Assembly: GCA_965205485.1 (NCBI GenBank)
Contig: OZ242180.1
Location: 3,424,001 to 3,488,000, forward strand
DNA length: 64,000 bases
Direction: 5' to 3'
DNA from: Candidatus Latescibacterota bacterium
GTDB lineage: Bacteria; Latescibacterota; UBA2968; GCA-2709665
The translations under genes were made by a program, and so were the position numbers. Numbering within the stretch: position 1 is the stretch's first letter; each line of letters starts with the position of its first letter. The notes beneath the pieces were generated by a model, which had not been told where the DNA came from, did no database searches, and worked only from the letters and a program-made list of their open reading frames with translations. Shown piece by piece: positions 3,085-56,147 of this stretch.

Positions 3085-3622
3085 CCAATGCCTCCACGTG
3101 CGAAGGCCAGGAGAGATCATCATATAACAATCGCATGCGCAGGAACCGCGGATTCTGCAGCGACTGATTAATCTCAACTCTACAAAGACAACCGTCAATT
3201 TACCACAAAAAGCACAAAAGGCACAGAAAGTGACGGTGCAAAAACGGGGTCTTGAGGTCGTTGAGAGGGATGAAATCTCCCTTCACGTCCAGTGACCTCA
3301 AGTATGCGGGACATTTGACGTCAATTCGCCTTTGTTCTTCTGTATATATTCGACATTCAGGTCCCCGAATAATAGTGAATCAAGGCTAAGACGGCATCAC
3401 GGGGCCCCTGATGCTGGTCAATGGAGTCGACCGATACCGAATGAGATCCCCGCTGGAAAGTTTGTCCGGTGGGGATTCTGCACGGTGTCCGCTACCCGGC
3501 GCTTGCGTTCACCCCACAGGCATGGGCCGCAAGCGGCGAAGGATTCAGTTGAAATGGCGATAACCGGTCCGGGCAGTGATTGTCTCTCCCAAACAGGGCA
3601 GAATAGATCGGAGGTGTTCCTG

Positions 3623-19671: not shown

Positions 19672-19854
19672 AACCGCACCCCTTGTTGGGACGCATTCGA
19701 CCGAATGGCTGGGTACAAATGAAACCAAGTATGTTCAATCAGACGCAGAGTATTCCACATCCTGCCGCGCAGCAATTTGAGCTCCGCGCCTGTCGGCGCC
19801 TGGCCCTCGGCAACCCACATTCGCAGGTTTGCAAACTGGCGTGATGTTATTCCT

Positions 19855-47040: not shown

Positions 47041-48111
47041 ATGTCGTTAGAGCACGCGGATCCGGATAACTCGCCGCCGGAAGACTCTGCAGTTCTTGAA
47101 GCCATCCTGATTGGGCCTCAACTTGAACGTTTCTGTGACGAGTTCGGGCTGACGCCTGGAGAGCTCGAACCCGACTTCACCGGATGGTCCAAGCACATCA
47201 TCAAGTCTCCGGATCATGTCTTTCTGTTTCCAAGACATCCAAAATACCAGTGTTCTCTGAATGTCGAGTTGGAACTATACAGGCTCTTCAGCGAACTGGA
47301 TCAATTGCCCGTGCCCAGGCACGTAAGGGCGGTCGAGAACCGCGAATTGAGCCCGTACCGGTTCGGCGTTGTCACGCGGCTGCACGGGATCCTGCTCGGA
47401 AACATCGAACACAGGTTAGGCGCAAGCGACTATGAGGAATTGCTTCGCACGATCGGACGGCTCACGGCGATCTGGCACAACCTTGATTTGGGTCATAAAA
47501 CTGATTTCCTGAAACCACTGTCTCAGGATATGGACGGCGATCATGGCGACTCGTATCGATGGCTGTATGGGGCGCTGCGTTCGGGTTTGCCGGGCGAAGC
47601 ACCGGATTTAATCGCTTCATCGGTCCGCGAATTGGCTGCAGGAGGCGGCACGGAGGATTTCGGTGACCTGAACTCCGCCTCGACGATAGACCAGTGGCAG
47701 AGGGCGTTGTCAGAATTGGCGGGGATGGACGACGTGCTGCTTCATGGCGATATCCACGAAGACCAGATTCTCGTCCGTTCCGAACGGGACCTGGAAGTAA
47801 CCGGGATCCTGGACTGGGGAAACGCAGGTTTCGGGAATCCCGCCCTTGAGTTCAACTTCGGAGAATGGGGCGCTGAGATCTGGCGTTACCGGGATAGATT
47901 CGGCACGTTTAGAGAGGTAATCTGGCGGGAGTACCTTCACGCACTGGGACTTGACGGACCGTCGTGGGAGGCCATACACATCCTTTACACCCTGCAGGAA
48001 CTCATCTGGACGATGACTGCGCGAAAGCCCATCGGAAACGAAGGTGGATCGTACGAGTCCGAAATGCGAAGGCTGCTTCGGATATTGAGAGAGACGACAG
48101 AAATGCTTTGA
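47041..48111 (+). CDS. APH-family phosphotransferase
   Basis: LLHGDIHEDQIL, GILDWG. Confidence 0.85.
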   Translation: MSLEHADPDNSPPEDSAVLEAILIGPQLERFCDEFGLTPGELEPDFTGWSKHIIKSPDHVFLFPRHPKYQCSLNVELELYRLFSELDQLPVPRHVRAVENRELSPYRFGVVTRLHGILLGNIEHRLGASDYEELLRTIGRLTAIWHNLDLGHKTDFLKPLSQDMDGDHGDSYRWLYGALRSGLPGEAPDLIASSVRELAAGGGTEDFGDLNSASTIDQWQRALSELAGMDDVLLHGDIHEDQILVRSERDLEVTGILDWGNAGFGNPALEFNFGEWGAEIWRYRDRFGTFREVIWREYLHALGLDGPSWEAIHILYTLQELIWTMTARKPIGNEGGSYESEMRRLLRILRETTEML

Positions 48112-50219: not shown

Positions 50220-51036
50220 ATGACTTCGTCTGAAACGGCGCCGCCTCTCGGTACATTCTCCTGGTTCGGCTACGAACTGCCTCTCTCTGATCGCCTGAGG
50301 TTGATCAGGAAGAGTGGTTTCAGTCACACGTTTCTGTGGATGGGAAATCAGGAACCGATGGTTGAATCCGGTCGTGCTCACGAAATGCCCGCAATGACTG
50401 CAGATGCCGGACTCGCCATTGATCACGTCCATGCGTCATACGACAATGCGAATGCGTTCTGGTCCGACAGCCCCGCCGAACGCGATGTTGTGGTCGATGA
50501 GAACCTTGAGCTGATCGAGTACTGCTGCCGGCATTCCATTTCCTGCATCGTGCTGCACGTCACGAAGGGGCCAACACCGCCTCCGTCTCGCACGGAAGGC
50601 CTGGAGATCTTTCGAAGACTGGGAGAGGAGGCGGCAAGAAGCGGGATCAGGTTGGCGCTCGAGAATACAAGGGTTACCGGTCGTGTGGACTTCATTCTGA
50701 ATGAGCTTCCTCTTGAGAGCCTGGGCTTGTGCTACGACAGTTCGCACGACACCCTGTATTCCGATACGCCCGGCGTTGTGCTTGGACAAGTGGGCGCATC
50801 GTCTCTTCACGACGCACTTTTCGGACACTGACGGTCGGGCTGACGTTCACTGGCTGCCGATGAAGGGAATCGTAAATTGGGATGCTGTATCCAGTGCGTA
50901 TCCCTCGTCGCACCCGGGCCCGATAATGATTGAGGCGGTCCCCCAAGACCCCGCGCAACCACCCGCTGAGTTTCTCGATGATGCGTACCGGACGGCAGTC
51001 AGACTGAGAGAGAGGCTGCTTGCCGGACACGAGTAG
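50220..51036 (+). pseudogene. Sugar phosphate isomerase/AP endonuclease 2 TIM barrel with frameshift near 50784
   Basis: LALEN, CYDSSH, then HFSD..DVHWLP..G.VNW..MIE in the shifted frame. Confidence 0.8.
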
Positions 51037-51103
51037 CGACGATAAGTCGAATTGACACGCCGTTCGCAATTGGTCCGGAGGCGGTCCATTAAGAAAGTAC
51101 GGT

Positions 51104-51159
51104 CAGAGGCAGTAATGGACGAAGCGAAACGGCGGGCGCCGACAAGGGACGCCCCTACA
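51104..51159 (+). repeat. Empty-site copy of the sulfotransferase gene flanks, including a REP family 1 copy (51134-51158, minus strand)
   Basis: 25/27 identity to 54103-54129 directly followed by 26/29 identity to 54918-54946. Confidence 0.85.
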
Positions 51160-51253
51160 GGGCGAGGAGCAGCGTTCGCGGTCTGGCGAACTGACACCCG
51201 ACAAGCAGCTCTGGTAGTTGTCTCGCGGAATCCACACCAAACAGGAGACACGA

Positions 51254-52642
51254 ATGACCCTGCAACTCAGAGCAGTCCTCTTCCTTGCGGTTGTGTGTCA
51301 GACCACTTCGGTCCCGGCGCAAGCCGCAAGTCTCATCGCAGGTCCGCTGATCGGCCATACCACAACGACGTCGGCAACGATCTGGGTTGAAACGGACGCC
51401 GCCGCGACGGTTCGAATTGACTACTGGGTTGAGCCCCGGGTCATGTTTCACCGGACCTTTAAAGAGCCGATGTCCAGGGGCTCAGCCGAAGCAAGAACGG
51501 AATCAACGACGCCATATACGTGCGCCATCGAACTTTCCGGTCTGCCACCGGGGCGGCTGGTCTATTACGATGTCTACGTCGACGGCAAGATAGTACGTCC
51601 CCTGACCGTCCAGGTGTTTCCACTTATGCCGCCCGAATCGATCTTGGAAACAGAACCCGAACGAATCACTGAATTCACAGTCGCCTTCGGATCGTGCAAT
51701 CTGCCCGCGAGAGTGCCTGTTCAATCGATCTGGTCACAGGTTGCGAGGTTCCGCCCGGCCGCCTTTCTGTTTATCGGCGACAACAATTACATGCCGGGGA
51801 AGGCGGAAGGATTTGATCTCCCCGAAGGCAGCGTCAGAGAGATCATGTCCCTCTACCATCGGAGATTCAGGCAGGTCCCCGGGCTCAGAGACATCGTCGC
51901 CACCACACCCAGCTACGGCATCTGGGACGACCACGACTTCGGACCGAACAATTCCGACCGGACATTCAGGTGGCGGGATCTCGCAATCGAGACGTTTCGC
52001 CGTTACTGGCCGAACCCATACCCCGAGTCCTCGGGTGCGCCCGGCGTCTTCCACAGGTTCCGGATAGCCGACGTAGAGTTCTTCATGCTCGACAACCGCT
52101 CTCACAGGGACCCAAACGAAGCGGAGGACAGATCCACGATGTTTGGTGAGGGCCAACTCGAATGGCTCAAGGCCAAACTGAAGAGCAGCACGGCCACCTT
52201 CAAGGTGATCGCTTCCGGCGGTACGGCGGTTGTTGATGAAACCGGAGAGACATGGTCGAATTTCGGCGACGAACGCGATCGGTTCTTCGCGTGGCTCTTT
52301 GAGGAAGATATCACCGGCGTCTTCTTTCTCGCCGGGGATTGGCACTCGGGTGTACTCCATCGCCTGGACCGACCGGGGTTTGACTATCCACTCTATGAAC
52401 TCATGAGTTCAAATCTGGCCGTCCGACGACGCAACCCGGATCCCACGCCCGGTGGAGGAGCCCTTCGGGGCGGAGGTCCTCAATCGGCGGCGCCATACGT
52501 CAGAGACTACAACTTCGGGCTTTTGAGGTTTGTTGGAGAGAAAGGCAACCGGGAAGTCTATCTTCAAATCATCGACGACACAGGCAAGATCAGAATCAGC
52601 CAGCTACTCTCAGAAGAATATCTGAGGCCGATAGAGGACTAA
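51254..52642 (+). CDS. Alkaline phosphatase D (PhoD) family protein
   Basis: FGSC, IGDNNY, WDDHD, LDNR, GDWH; signal peptide; AGGAG RBS. Confidence 0.9.
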   Translation: MTLQLRAVLFLAVVCQTTSVPAQAASLIAGPLIGHTTTTSATIWVETDAAATVRIDYWVEPRVMFHRTFKEPMSRGSAEARTESTTPYTCAIELSGLPPGRLVYYDVYVDGKIVRPLTVQVFPLMPPESILETEPERITEFTVAFGSCNLPARVPVQSIWSQVARFRPAAFLFIGDNNYMPGKAEGFDLPEGSVREIMSLYHRRFRQVPGLRDIVATTPSYGIWDDHDFGPNNSDRTFRWRDLAIETFRRYWPNPYPESSGAPGVFHRFRIADVEFFMLDNRSHRDPNEAEDRSTMFGEGQLEWLKAKLKSSTATFKVIASGGTAVVDETGETWSNFGDERDRFFAWLFEEDITGVFFLAGDWHSGVLHRLDRPGFDYPLYELMSSNLAVRRRNPDPTPGGGALRGGGPQSAAPYVRDYNFGLLRFVGEKGNREVYLQIIDDTGKIRISQLLSEEYLRPIED

Positions 52643-52803
52643 GGGCGCGTCCCTCGACACGATTCACAAGGGCCTCGTGAAAACCTCCTCCGGCCCAACT
52701 TGACCGAGGAAAGACCGCGATCACCCAAGACACCTGCCTGAGAACGGATTCGAGATCTACTGTGCGGGAACTGAGCGGCACGAGACTGGGATGGAGAGTA
52801 AAT

Positions 52804-52926
52804 ATGGAACAGCGACCAGAGGTGTCGGAGCTGGCGTTGGAAGGCGCTGCTTCTGTATACGAGTTCATCGAACGCACGTCCGTTCCAACGGCAGAAGGTG
52901 TACGCTGGCAGAGCGGCTGCGCTTGA
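52804..52926 (+). pseudogene. 40-codon gene stub
   Basis: GGAGAG RBS + ATG; protein-like sequence MEQRPEVSELALEGAASVYEFIERTSVPTAEGVRW that ends abruptly. Confidence 0.4.
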
Positions 52927-53193
52927 CCTTGGGCATGCCCTCACCACCGGTCGACAGTTTTTTGGCAGGATCCGGGTGAAGGCTCAGTGGTACAGCTTGG
53001 GACTCGCGAACCAGGAGCCACCTTCGCTATTCGGGAATTTCGGTAATGGGAATTACGCTGGGTCGTGGCTCCGTCGCATTTGCATCTTCAGTGAATCCTG
53101 GTGTCAAGGTTCATGGCAGGCGAACGACACCGTGCGCCAGCGAACCATTGGGTGAAACCGCGCATCATATAGCTGCCTCGGAGCGTCGTAGCT

Positions 53194-53961
53194 ATGTCAG
53201 CACCTGTAATTGCCGAAGACCGAGCGTGGGAAATCGCAGACACTTTCGCTGCAGAGAGCCGTGAGGTCTTGGGCGCTCACCTGACGGCGGTTGTGGCCGT
53301 GGGATCGCTGCCTGCAGGTTCCTACGTCCCGGGCAGAAGTGATATTGATTTGGTCGTGGTTGCAAGGGACGCTTGCCCGGAAGGCCTTCTGTCTGAAATC
53401 AAGGAGATGGCCAGGCGATATTGGGTGAAGTACGGATTCTCAAAGGGATTCGGAGGATATGGCATTCATGAATCCGACCTCAGCCCTCCATTCGGCAGAC
53501 TCCACGATATGGTCTACGAGATTCTTCAACTCAAGCAGCAAGGACGGGTGATTCTGGGGCATCTGGACCTGTCGGCGATTCCGGATCCTTCGGAGGACGA
53601 TATGAGGCGGTCCCTGGCTGATCTTGTGCCAGACCTTCTCGGGGCCTGGAAACGCAACTTTCCGGCCCCAATCGACGTCGCCGACGCACGCGTCAACAAC
53701 ATCATCTACTGGCTTCGAATCTTGGTTTGGGACCGAACTGGCGAGTATGTTCTTGGTAAACGTAACGTCCTTCCGGCGTTTTCGAACCTGCCTGGTAGTG
53801 ACTCGATTCTGGAAATGTTGACCCCGATCAGATTGTACCTCAATCAAGAGTCAGATTGTCCGGGGGACGTCAAGCGTTACTGTCGGGAGGTAGAAACATT
53901 CGTCCTTGGCGAAGTCGAATGGGTTCGCAGGGCAGCACCTGATCGAATGTTGGAAGATTGA
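53194..53961 (+). CDS. Pol-beta-type nucleotidyltransferase domain protein
   Basis: VGSLPAGSYVPGRSDIDL. Confidence 0.8.
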   Translation: MSAPVIAEDRAWEIADTFAAESREVLGAHLTAVVAVGSLPAGSYVPGRSDIDLVVVARDACPEGLLSEIKEMARRYWVKYGFSKGFGGYGIHESDLSPPFGRLHDMVYEILQLKQQGRVILGHLDLSAIPDPSEDDMRRSLADLVPDLLGAWKRNFPAPIDVADARVNNIIYWLRILVWDRTGEYVLGKRNVLPAFSNLPGSDSILEMLTPIRLYLNQESDCPGDVKRYCREVETFVLGEVEWVRRAAPDRMLED

Positions 53962-54113
53962 ACTTCCTGTCTTGCGTTGTAGCACTATCGTGCATTGGAA
54001 TTCAACAACCCGAATCACGGGTCGCAATTCGGGGCGCGGAAGCTTTTCTTTCCAGACTTTGGTTTAGTCTGACCCTCTTGATACTGCTTGAAGAGCCCCG
54101 CCCAGAGGCAGTA

Positions 54114-54914
54114 ATGGACGAGGTGAAACAACTGGAATCACTCATCGGGGCTGCGCGGCAGGATGATGCTCACCAGACCTTCTCGTACCATGGATGGGTC
54201 GTGCCAGAGTACAAATGCCTGTGCATGACAATTCCAAAGGTTGCCTGTACTACGGTAAAGGTGACGCTATACCATCTGGCTGGAAACCCGGCGCCGGCGG
54301 AACCGAACGACATTCACGGTCTCGACGTCGGGTTGTTTGTCGGGAAATACAGCACTGAAGAGATCATCGAGATGCTGACCTCGCCGGAATGGGTGAGATT
54401 CTGCTTTGTCCGCAATCCGTATCATCGGTTGCTCTCGGCTTACAAGTCAAAGATCGGGAACACGCGGGATACCCAATATTCATGGTTACAGGATGCAATT
54501 CGGGGAAGATTCAGCTGCCCTGACGATGATCAAGGTAGTGCCAACATGGTGACGTTTGTGGACTTAGTTCATTTCCTGTCAGACTGCGGAGGGAAGGTGC
54601 GATACGAGCTCAAGCCGGACGCCATCTTCGACGGACACTTCAATGCTCAGACTAGGATTCTCAGGCAGGACTTGATCGAATATGATTTCATCGGCCGCTT
54701 CGAGAATTTCGCCGCCGATTTCAAGACTGTACTGGCACGGCTCGGCGCTCCGGTTGAAACGGTCGCGCTTGTCTCGGAAAGGCGGAACGTATCGGCCCAT
54801 GTACCACTGGACGAGGTGTACAATCCCCAGTTGGCGGCTCTGACCTATGAAGTCTATCGAAACGACTTCGAGGCCTTCGAGTACGGCAGGGATAGCTGGC
54901 TCTGCGGATCGTGA
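54114..54914 (+). CDS. Sulfotransferase family 2 protein
   Basis: IPKVACTT, FVRNPYHRLLSAY, YDFIGRFE, DFEAFEY. Confidence 0.9.
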   Translation: MDEVKQLESLIGAARQDDAHQTFSYHGWVVPEYKCLCMTIPKVACTTVKVTLYHLAGNPAPAEPNDIHGLDVGLFVGKYSTEEIIEMLTSPEWVRFCFVRNPYHRLLSAYKSKIGNTRDTQYSWLQDAIRGRFSCPDDDQGSANMVTFVDLVHFLSDCGGKVRYELKPDAIFDGHFNAQTRILRQDLIEYDFIGRFENFAADFKTVLARLGAPVETVALVSERRNVSAHVPLDEVYNPQLAALTYEVYRNDFEAFEYGRDSWLCGS

Positions 54915-54920
54915 AACGCC

Positions 54921-54945
54921 GGGCGCCCACAACGGACGCCCCTAC
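54921..54945 (-). repeat. REP family 1 copy
   Basis: GGGCGCCCACAACGGACGCCCCTAC. Confidence 0.85.
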
Positions 54946-55146
54946 AATGTCAATGACCGCCCATAAGCGGCCAAAACGGGATCGGCCTAGAGCGACCACT
55001 GCAAGATCGGCATAGTCAGGCCAGACCAGGCAAGGCGAGGAGACGTAAATACGCGCGAATCTATGGAAACATCGCCGCGATAATGACGATTGAAGACCGT
55101 TAGTCTGCCAGCAAAGGTATCGGGCGGGGTTATCAGGAGATGTCAG

Positions 55147-55554
55147 ATGAAGGATCAACTCGATTGCGTGAGGCATTTTCATGAGGTGTTCCAGTGTCAC
55201 CTGGAGCGAACACCTGTTGCAGAACTGCCTTCGGACACAAGCGAATGGCGTATCCGAATGTTAATGGAGGAGTTAGAGGAATATCGAGCGGCCGTGCGTG
55301 ACAATGGCATCGTCGAGATCGCGGACGCCCTTACCGACATGCTTTACGTGCTTATTGGTACATTTATCGCTCATGGGCTGCATGATATTGCCGAATCGCT
55401 TTTCGATGAGGTCCACCGGAGCAACATGAGCAAGCTGGATGAGCAGGGTAAGACCATATTCAGGAGTTGCGGCAAAGTGTTGAAGTCAGAACGGTTTTCG
55501 GAACCGAATTTGCGGTCGATCATAGCGAGGATCGGCCACGATGAGCCGGGGTAG
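55147..55554 (+). CDS. MazG-like / PRA-PH nucleotide pyrophosphohydrolase
   Basis: EELEEY, EIADALTDMLYV, EVHRSNMSK, GKVLK. Confidence 0.9.
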   Translation: MKDQLDCVRHFHEVFQCHLERTPVAELPSDTSEWRIRMLMEELEEYRAAVRDNGIVEIADALTDMLYVLIGTFIAHGLHDIAESLFDEVHRSNMSKLDEQGKTIFRSCGKVLKSERFSEPNLRSIIARIGHDEPG

Positions 55555-55595: not shown

Positions 55596-56147
55596 ATGTC
55601 TGAGAATATAACGCGCGGGAGTACGGAAGATCCGAATCCTGTCCAGCTTGGACTGATCCGGGAAATTCATGAAGCATTGACAGCGCGTTCCATCCCGCAC
55701 TGGTTGGGCGGGGGTTGGGCGTTGGATTTTCTGCTGGGGGAAATCACGCGCGTACACGGCGACGTCGATTGGGCAATATGGAAGTCAGATGCGCCGGATG
55801 TGACCGTTCGTCTCGGATCCCTGGGGTATTCCCGCCAGCAAGTCCGGCATCCTGAAGAACACATCGGGTTTTACAAACGCGATCAGTATGTCAGTTTTGG
55901 GCTGCTCGAGAAGACTTTGTCCGGGGATGTGGTTACATCCGGCCGTTGGACCGATTGGCCCTATCCGCATAGCGCCTTTTGTGCGCCGGAGGGACGGCTG
56001 GGTGACTTATCCTGCCCGATCCTCAGCGCTGAGGCCCAACTGGACGAAAAGGTCAACTTTCACAAGCACCCTGCCGGCGCGCCACTTAGAGAAGAGGATA
56101 TTCCTGCGATCGAGAGGCTGCGCAGGTACATTGCGGGTCGCCGGTGA
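55596..56147 (+). CDS. ANT(2'')/Lnu-like nucleotidyltransferase
   Basis: WLGGGWALDFLLGEITRVHGDVD. Confidence 0.85.
   Translation: MSENITRGSTEDPNPVQLGLIREIHEALTARSIPHWLGGGWALDFLLGEITRVHGDVDWAIWKSDAPDVTVRLGSLGYSRQQVRHPEEHIGFYKRDQYVSFGLLEKTLSGDVVTSGRWTDWPYPHSAFCAPEGRLGDLSCPILSAEAQLDEKVNFHKHPAGAPLREEDIPAIERLRRYIAGRR

Follow-up and report, generated by a model that had tools for sequence, protein, structure and literature searches.

Two short segments of a Candidatus Latescibacterota chromosome, lying 3 kb apart, look like the empty and the filled form of one and the same cassette, which raises the question of whether genes are captured here at a dedicated acceptor site or whether the empty form is what was left when a gene was lost. 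Both segments lie in a window of 64,000 nucleotides (assembly GCA_965205485.1, contig OZ242180.1, positions 3,424,001 to 3,488,000 of the forward strand), and positions given below are those of this window unless a contig or locus is named. The filled form is an intact sulfotransferase gene with its ribosome-binding site (RBS) leader, followed by a repetitive extragenic palindromic (REP) element. The empty form is a stretch of 56 bp in which the beginning of such a gene runs directly into a REP of the same type. The site is located about 100 kb down an old, eroded integron-like cassette array of about 180 kb. The 5.1-Mb source genome (G000) was compared with congeners labelled G001 to G014, and the genus comparison covers 15 genomes. 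The results described here make it quite probable that the empty site is a sulfotransferase start fused to a REP by a microhomology deletion, and not a gene-capture site.

The Empty Site and the Filled Copy

The features that make up the two sites are as follows.

51104..51130, plus strand: remnant of a sulfotransferase allele, consisting of the RBS leader and the first 16 coding nucleotides, with the ATG at 51115 (ATT in G014)
51126..51130, plus strand: GAAAC junction word, common to both ends of the proposed deletion
51131..51159, minus strand: GTAG-type REP, scar copy, with GTAG foot and hairpin
51160..51174, plus strand: first 15 nucleotides of post-REP tail A, common to the scars of G004 and G014
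54103..54914, plus strand: intact sulfotransferase gene (PF03567, 266 amino acids) with RBS leader, ATG at 54114
54911..54917, plus strand: GTGAAAC over the stop codon
54918..54946, minus strand: second REP copy of the same type, behind the intact sulfotransferase
54947..55021, plus strand: post-REP tail B, a separate repeat of units of about 21 nucleotides, absent behind the scar

The matches on which the first-pass annotation of this stretch was built were all recovered. The left half of the empty site (51104-51130) agrees with the leader and first codons of the sulfotransferase (54103-54129) at 25 of 27 positions, the right half (51131-51159) agrees with 54918-54946 at 26 of 29, and GTGAAAC is present at 54123 (54123-54129, codons 4-6) and again 788 bp further on at 54911, where it holds the TGA stop. 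The left match is above chance, as 40 dinucleotide-keeping shuffles of the window produced no direct pair of 27-mers with two or fewer mismatches, and the left half has only two copies in the 5.1-Mb genome at up to six mismatches. The annotation had also stated that removal of the 788 bp recreates the empty form, joined at GTGAAAC. The removal comes close (51 of 56 matches) without giving identity, and the empty site reads GCGAAAC, leaving only the 5 bp GAAAC in common. Moreover, the likeness ends at both edges of the 56 bp: the upstream flanks differ, and the two copies carry unlike types of sequence behind the REP.

The scar is bridged by a contig of run X17 (51078-51302, 0 differences) and by a contig of run X19 (51099-51345, 1 difference), runs that may represent the assembly's own sample. 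In addition, a joint from 51174 to 55133, corresponding to the layout of G004 and G014 described below, was found in one run from another sample, with a short side of 30 letters. Neither a 788-bp skip nor a circle joint was found in the contigs of four runs, although contigs drop rare variants and cannot show absence. In three runs, contig depth roughly doubles at 54207 and beyond, which faintly suggests a second strain whose 5′ context differs; this was not used as evidence. There was no Rfam match at E up to 0.1, and counts of promoters and terminators were no higher than the shuffle level.

The Same Place in Related Genomes

Two neighboring genes serve to identify the place in other genomes.

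50220..51036, plus strand: xylose-isomerase-like TIM-barrel gene (PF01261), divided between two frames in the assembly
55147..55554, plus strand: PRA-PH family gene (PF01503), directly behind the scar in G004 and G014

The TIM-barrel gene is the upstream anchor of the scar in G000, G004, and G014, and of an intact sulfotransferase gene in G006. The order in G004 and G014 is TIM-barrel gene, scar, PRA-PH gene, and no intact sulfotransferase was found in either genome; the scar of G014 has lost its ATG. At the orthologous place in G006, the TIM-barrel gene is followed by an intact allele that carries GCGAAAC at its start and GTGAAAC before the REP, and then by tail B, a tail unlike that of the scar, which limits G006 as a parent allele. 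The scars of G000, G004, and G014 have the same breakpoint and the same tail A, and over the 97 nucleotides ending at the junction they agree with one another at 83-85 positions, compared with 77-82 for G006. The shared breakpoint and tail, together with this greater closeness to each other than to G006, fit a single origin of the scar, and its occurrence in G004 and G014 makes it older than the G000 genome. Since the scar reads GCGAAAC and its outer flanks are unlike those of the filled copy, it likely came from another allele, and comparison of the alleles suggests that this parent likely read GCGAAAC, as G006 does. Consequently, the earlier proposal that a duplicated copy lost its body through a short repeat stands as to the kind of event, a microhomology deletion, and not as to its age, its junction word, or its flanks. 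The frame split of the TIM-barrel gene coincides with a 1-base gap at 50782-50790 in several contigs and may therefore be an assembly error or a strain variant.

Origin of the Left Flank

The first-pass annotation offered, as its other reading, a REP-adjacent acceptor site that supplies the RBS and start codon to captured genes, and proposed that the same flanks around different genes would demonstrate it. No such case exists in the 15 genus genomes. A degenerate pattern of the left flank has nine matches in 8 of these genomes, six of which are the sulfotransferase's own start and three of which are the scar, tying the flank to this gene in nine of nine matches; the reversed control pattern gave none. 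The annotation had also suggested inspecting the N-termini of homologues. Of 98 found, 30 were aligned, and all 30 start at the same Met or within a few residues of it, indicating that the start is the gene's own. Close homologues begin with Mx(E/D)(V/A/T)KQL or near that, and homologues as distant as about 60% identity have this as their native N-terminus. The sulfotransferase is present in 7 of the 15 genomes, and the 5′ end of the intact gene stays the same across four upstream contexts. Behind its stop, no same-sense REP is found in G001, G003, and G009. With a left flank that occurs only with this gene and an N-terminus shared by its homologues, the capture-site reading fails.

The REP Element and the Sequence behind It

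The REP has 69 copies in the genome at up to six mismatches in 29 nucleotides, so the right half of the empty site needs no common origin with that of the filled copy. The two hairpins fold at −6.3 and −8.7 kcal/mol as DNA. With its GTAG foot, short hairpin, and many dispersed intergenic copies, some of them in inverted pairs, the element corresponds to the GTAG-type REPs as described in the available part of PMC3733652; the consensus is assigned here to the class and to no numbered GTAG family. The possibility that GAAAC is part of the REP consensus was rejected, as the word stands at that place in only 4 of 85 copies, including both copies considered here; GAAA is found near the REP in 19 of the 85. 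Other REP copies within the arrays mostly retain their flanks.

Tail A resembles the sequence behind the intact sulfotransferase of G008. Tail B is carried by the filled alleles of G000, G002, and G006 and by a deletion allele in G005; further genomic copies of it lie at G000:C1 71093, 187560, 2547626, and 3765320.

A Proposed Deletion between Two Short Identical Words

Microhomology-mediated (illegitimate, slippage-type) deletion that leaves a gene remnant is a recognized class of event. The scar resembles this class in having a short identical word at both ends of which one copy is kept, in having no recombinase site, and in that junction words vary between events in the array. It differs in that one REP edge appears to have been reused by three events, which suggests a local, hairpin-assisted hotspot. 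The proposed deletion would have run from the GAAAC in codons 4-6 of the sulfotransferase to the GAAAC at the edge of the REP, as an illegitimate event brought about by replication slippage or by end-joining over 5-6 bp of microhomology. The REP hairpin probably aided the process, with no site-specific recombinase taking part, and the deletion likely happened once, in the common ancestor of G000, G004, and G014. The GTGAAAC at 54911..54917 was itself likely made by the loss of about 44 bp from a 50-bp spacer between stop and REP that is kept in G002 and G008.

Several observations weigh against this account. Three deletions, apparently separate from one another, have GAAAC at this REP's 5′ edge as their end point: the scar, one of about 44 bp found in G000 and G006, and one of 4.9 kb in G005. 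Likewise, two independent sulfotransferase scars break within 2-3 nucleotides of each other at the 5′ end. Both the convergence on the REP edge and the near-identical 5′ breaks are poorly predicted by plain random microhomology. A hairpin that favors slippage, combined with a microhomology ready at its edge, would be the simplest account of the reuse of the REP edge. Furthermore, 6 of the 66 distinct attC-like sites (attC being the cassette recombination site of integrons) have GAAAC in front of their G|TT core, which leaves room for a decayed attC end. The exact parent allele, with TIM-barrel gene, intact sulfotransferase, REP, and tail A, is in none of the genomes examined, and the sequence of events was worked out by parsimony from alleles that are mosaic and unrooted. 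A more far-reaching version, in which REP hairpins replace attC sites and integrase as the preferred deletion ends in decayed giant arrays and GAAAC is the last relic of an attC site reused by three deletions, is conceivable and rather unlikely.

The phoD Block and Exchange of Alleles

The intact copy 3 kb from the scar represents another allele, whose flanks are not those of the scar. Between the two lie the following features.

51175..51253, plus strand: phoD leader, found only in G000 among 13 array stretches compared
51254..52642, plus strand: PhoD-like phosphatase gene (PF09423), with no counterpart seen here in G004, G006, or G014
53194..53961, plus strand: nucleotidyltransferase-like gene, with a PF01909 match too weak to reach the cut-off

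The joint to the phoD block is located near the left end of 51175..51253. The nucleotidyltransferase gene is 94% identical to that of G002, compared with 80-89% for other genes, and the sulfotransferases of G000 and G006 are 83-93% identical over the first 500 nucleotides and 97-100% identical over the last 300. To go by these identities, the alleles are mosaic and have been exchanged between species. It appears somewhat more probable than the reverse that G000, a scar haplotype, regained the block of phoD, nucleotidyltransferase, and sulfotransferase genes by homologous exchange with a congener; that it kept its intact copy from an ancestral two-copy state is somewhat less probable. Homology-facilitated illegitimate recombination would fit the block, with homology on the PRA-PH side and a non-homologous joint near 51174; the ancestral two-copy state fits it as well. 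In G000, the first seven or so phoD codons (51254-51275) and the leader do not resemble their counterparts in G002, G008, and G013, which suggests that the 5′ end was replaced.

The Array and Its attC-like Sites

The genome's longest co-oriented run, with 101 called genes over 113 kb, takes in the window and is followed by a second run of 46, as counted with a simple purpose-made gene caller. The relatives share these genes and, broadly, their order, apart from local shuffling, gain, loss, and duplicates. The sites of these arrays were sought with an attC model, R1, that was purpose-built from 22 of them and is not the model of IntegronFinder; four of its six inner pairs covary. With a ceiling of E 2, R1 has 13 matches in G000, 7 of which reach E 0.01 or better; all are on the plus strand, and 12 lie upstream of the window. 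The relatives have 131 matches, all in array orientation. With E limited to 0.02, 109 matches were placed; 79 of these are over 60 kb upstream of the TIM-barrel gene, and 6 are less than 20 kb from it. Three groups each show one and the same attC-like site with different sequence behind G|TT, which is the mark of cassette recombination. A strict RYYYAAC...GTTRRRY pattern was also tried and abandoned, as it picked out only two intergenic regions in about 145 kb of G000; R1 did better. The single match in the window and the recombinase at the array head are located as follows.

19773..19852, plus strand: attC-like match of R1 (27.5 bits), the only one in the window, 31 kb upstream of the scar
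G000:C1 ~3373300-3373400, L116:1171-2172, and L118:1171-1983, co-oriented with the array: head recombinase or its stub

R1 gave no match at the scar or at the sulfotransferase in G000. Run with filters off over 13 loci, it found nothing at the stop-to-REP spacers or at the scars, its three matches at E up to 5 all lying elsewhere. An attC profile gave best p values of 0.07-0.6 behind the sulfotransferase stop over seven alleles, and of 0.02, 0.10, 0.11, and 0.49 upstream of four starts linked to the TIM-barrel gene. For GAAAC as a relic of an attC site, the support from R1 and from the profile is not significant. The remark in the first-pass annotation that this is not standard IntI recombination holds for the junction; the head of the array nonetheless has attC-like sites. 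The sulfotransferase of G008 (L107) has an internal stop, and about 200-280 bp behind it lies a weak attC-like 3′ half (E 4.6).

By the definition in the available part of PMC4889954, the array, though not the scar, resembles a cluster of attC sites with no integron integrase (CALIN), or sedentary chromosomal integron. At least two co-oriented attC-like sites have an inverse core, a core, and paired inner boxes under R1, and there is no intI nearby in G000, whose XerC/XerD-like tyrosine recombinases, the only ones present, lie elsewhere in the genome. It differs in that the attC sites peter out along the array, this locus having none, and the scar is no product of them. A complete integron, with an integrase bearing the IntI-specific insertion, was not found. 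The head tyrosine recombinases of G011 and G013 lack about 40 residues of the true IntI insertion and have an N-terminus that looks damaged, that of G013 scoring 214 bits against a TIGR02249 cut-off of 265, and the gene is gone from G000, where a 93-bp match to the recombinase 3′ end (53 coding nucleotides) remains at the array head. The recombinase is fused to the N-terminus of another gene in G013, appears to be frameshifted in G011, and is reduced in G000 to a 3′ stub; the arrays of G003, G008, and G013 contain additional C-terminal fragments.

Other features of the arrays include a family B DNA polymerase gene on the minus strand just before the array head (G000:C1:3370292-3372418; L034:6295-8421), which is divergent in the same way in G003, G013, and G014. 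A 195-bp repeat was considered as an attC site and rejected, as its 49 matches genome-wide occur in both orientations and it behaves as a miniature inverted-repeat transposable element. It is found in the window at 3385, 10224, and 25476, mostly points the same way as the array near the head, and disrupts the PRA-PH gene of G006. An APH-family kinase gene (47041-48111) and an aminoglycoside-2''-adenylyltransferase-family gene (55596-56147) are typical cassette cargo.

Other Scars and Indels in the Arrays

Gene-start scars of this kind are ordinary in the arrays, where other genes have left similar ones. G012 lost its sulfotransferase independently, with 14 coding nucleotides kept, another right end, a 2-bp microhomology, and no REP. 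A first, unfiltered screen for remnants of 5′ ends was too noisy (at least 118 rows) and was refiltered. After filtering, 645 genes with supported starts yielded 28 rows, which fall into 17 gene clusters and are in part due to mis-called starts; only the three scars behind the TIM-barrel gene touch this REP. Among 68 gene-sized indels, 12 have a junction identity of at least 4 bp against a null of 1.8%, a count that junction refinement may inflate; each word is different, none is GAAAC, and about half of these indels resemble insertion-sequence target duplications. A general hotspot at the REP or at GAAAC was rejected on this basis, with 0 and 1, respectively, of 136 indel ends. The three events at the REP edge are missing from this set because of the filters of the automated procedure. 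No paper on these arrays or on such remnants was found in the literature searched, which leaves most subscription journals outside its coverage.

Alternative Explanations

An enzyme might have cut at the REP edge, either an integrase-like recombinase acting on a decayed attC end (GAAAC|G) and a look-alike in codons 4-6, or a REP-associated transposase (RAYT/TnpA-REP). The convergence of three deletions on one edge and the occurrence of GAAAC before G|TT in attC-like sites would be explained in this way, the spacer behind the stop in G002 begins like the 5′ end of an attC site, and 8 of the 15 genus genomes have Y1-transposase matches, which are weak and not typed as RAYT. However, neither junction has a GTT core, R1 finds nothing at the spacers and scars, the profile scores behind the stop are not significant, and this REP is absent from the ends of the other indels. 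Cassette excision between two attC sites crosses over at G|TT and would remove the whole gene, whereas 16 coding nucleotides remain here. As for TnpA-REP, which is described as cutting at CT in the available part of PMC3479197, the shared word has no CT on the REP strand and G000 has no Y1-transposase match, so the locus differs from those systems on both counts. An enzymatic cut is consequently improbable, and deletion through microhomology at the REP edge accounts for the junction better.

A one-off tandem duplication in this genome, followed by loss of 788 bp through the 7-bp GTGAAAC repeat, would agree with two copies 3 kb apart in the same orientation, with the close result of the in-silico deletion, and with the local duplicates of other genes in the arrays of relatives. 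It is at odds with a scar that is shared by G004 and G014, where no intact copy was found, and that reads GCGAAAC and has an upstream flank and post-REP tail unlike those of the filled copy; moreover, a match of 25 of 27 is what alleles of different species usually show here. The shared scar largely refutes such a recent duplication, to which only a slight chance is given, and leaves an ancient duplication in the common ancestor, which falls within the explanation by microhomology deletion. Although empty (G000, G004, G014) and filled (G006) forms do alternate behind the TIM-barrel gene, as an acceptor site would have it, a flank that never precedes another gene, an N-terminus native to the homologues, a 5′ end constant in four upstream contexts, and three genomes with no same-sense REP behind the stop leave that reading with hardly any probability. 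An assembly artefact at the scar junction is very unlikely, less credible still than an acceptor site: the samples do contain several related strains, as seen in many variant contigs, and the TIM-barrel frameshift is missing from several contigs, but the scar is bridged by contigs with at most one difference and its junction is shared by two separately assembled congeners.

Significance

A single scar matters little in itself, beyond removing a candidate capture system. It does provide a clean example of an old array that, without attC sites and integrase, is still changing by short-homology deletion and by exchange of alleles between species, and it illustrates that these two processes together can mimic empty and filled sites. 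The repeated use of a single REP edge offers a small lead. If REP hairpins do serve as deletion ends, the arrays would still lose genes nearly one cassette at a time with no recombinase involved. Of wider interest are the array and its atypical head recombinase.

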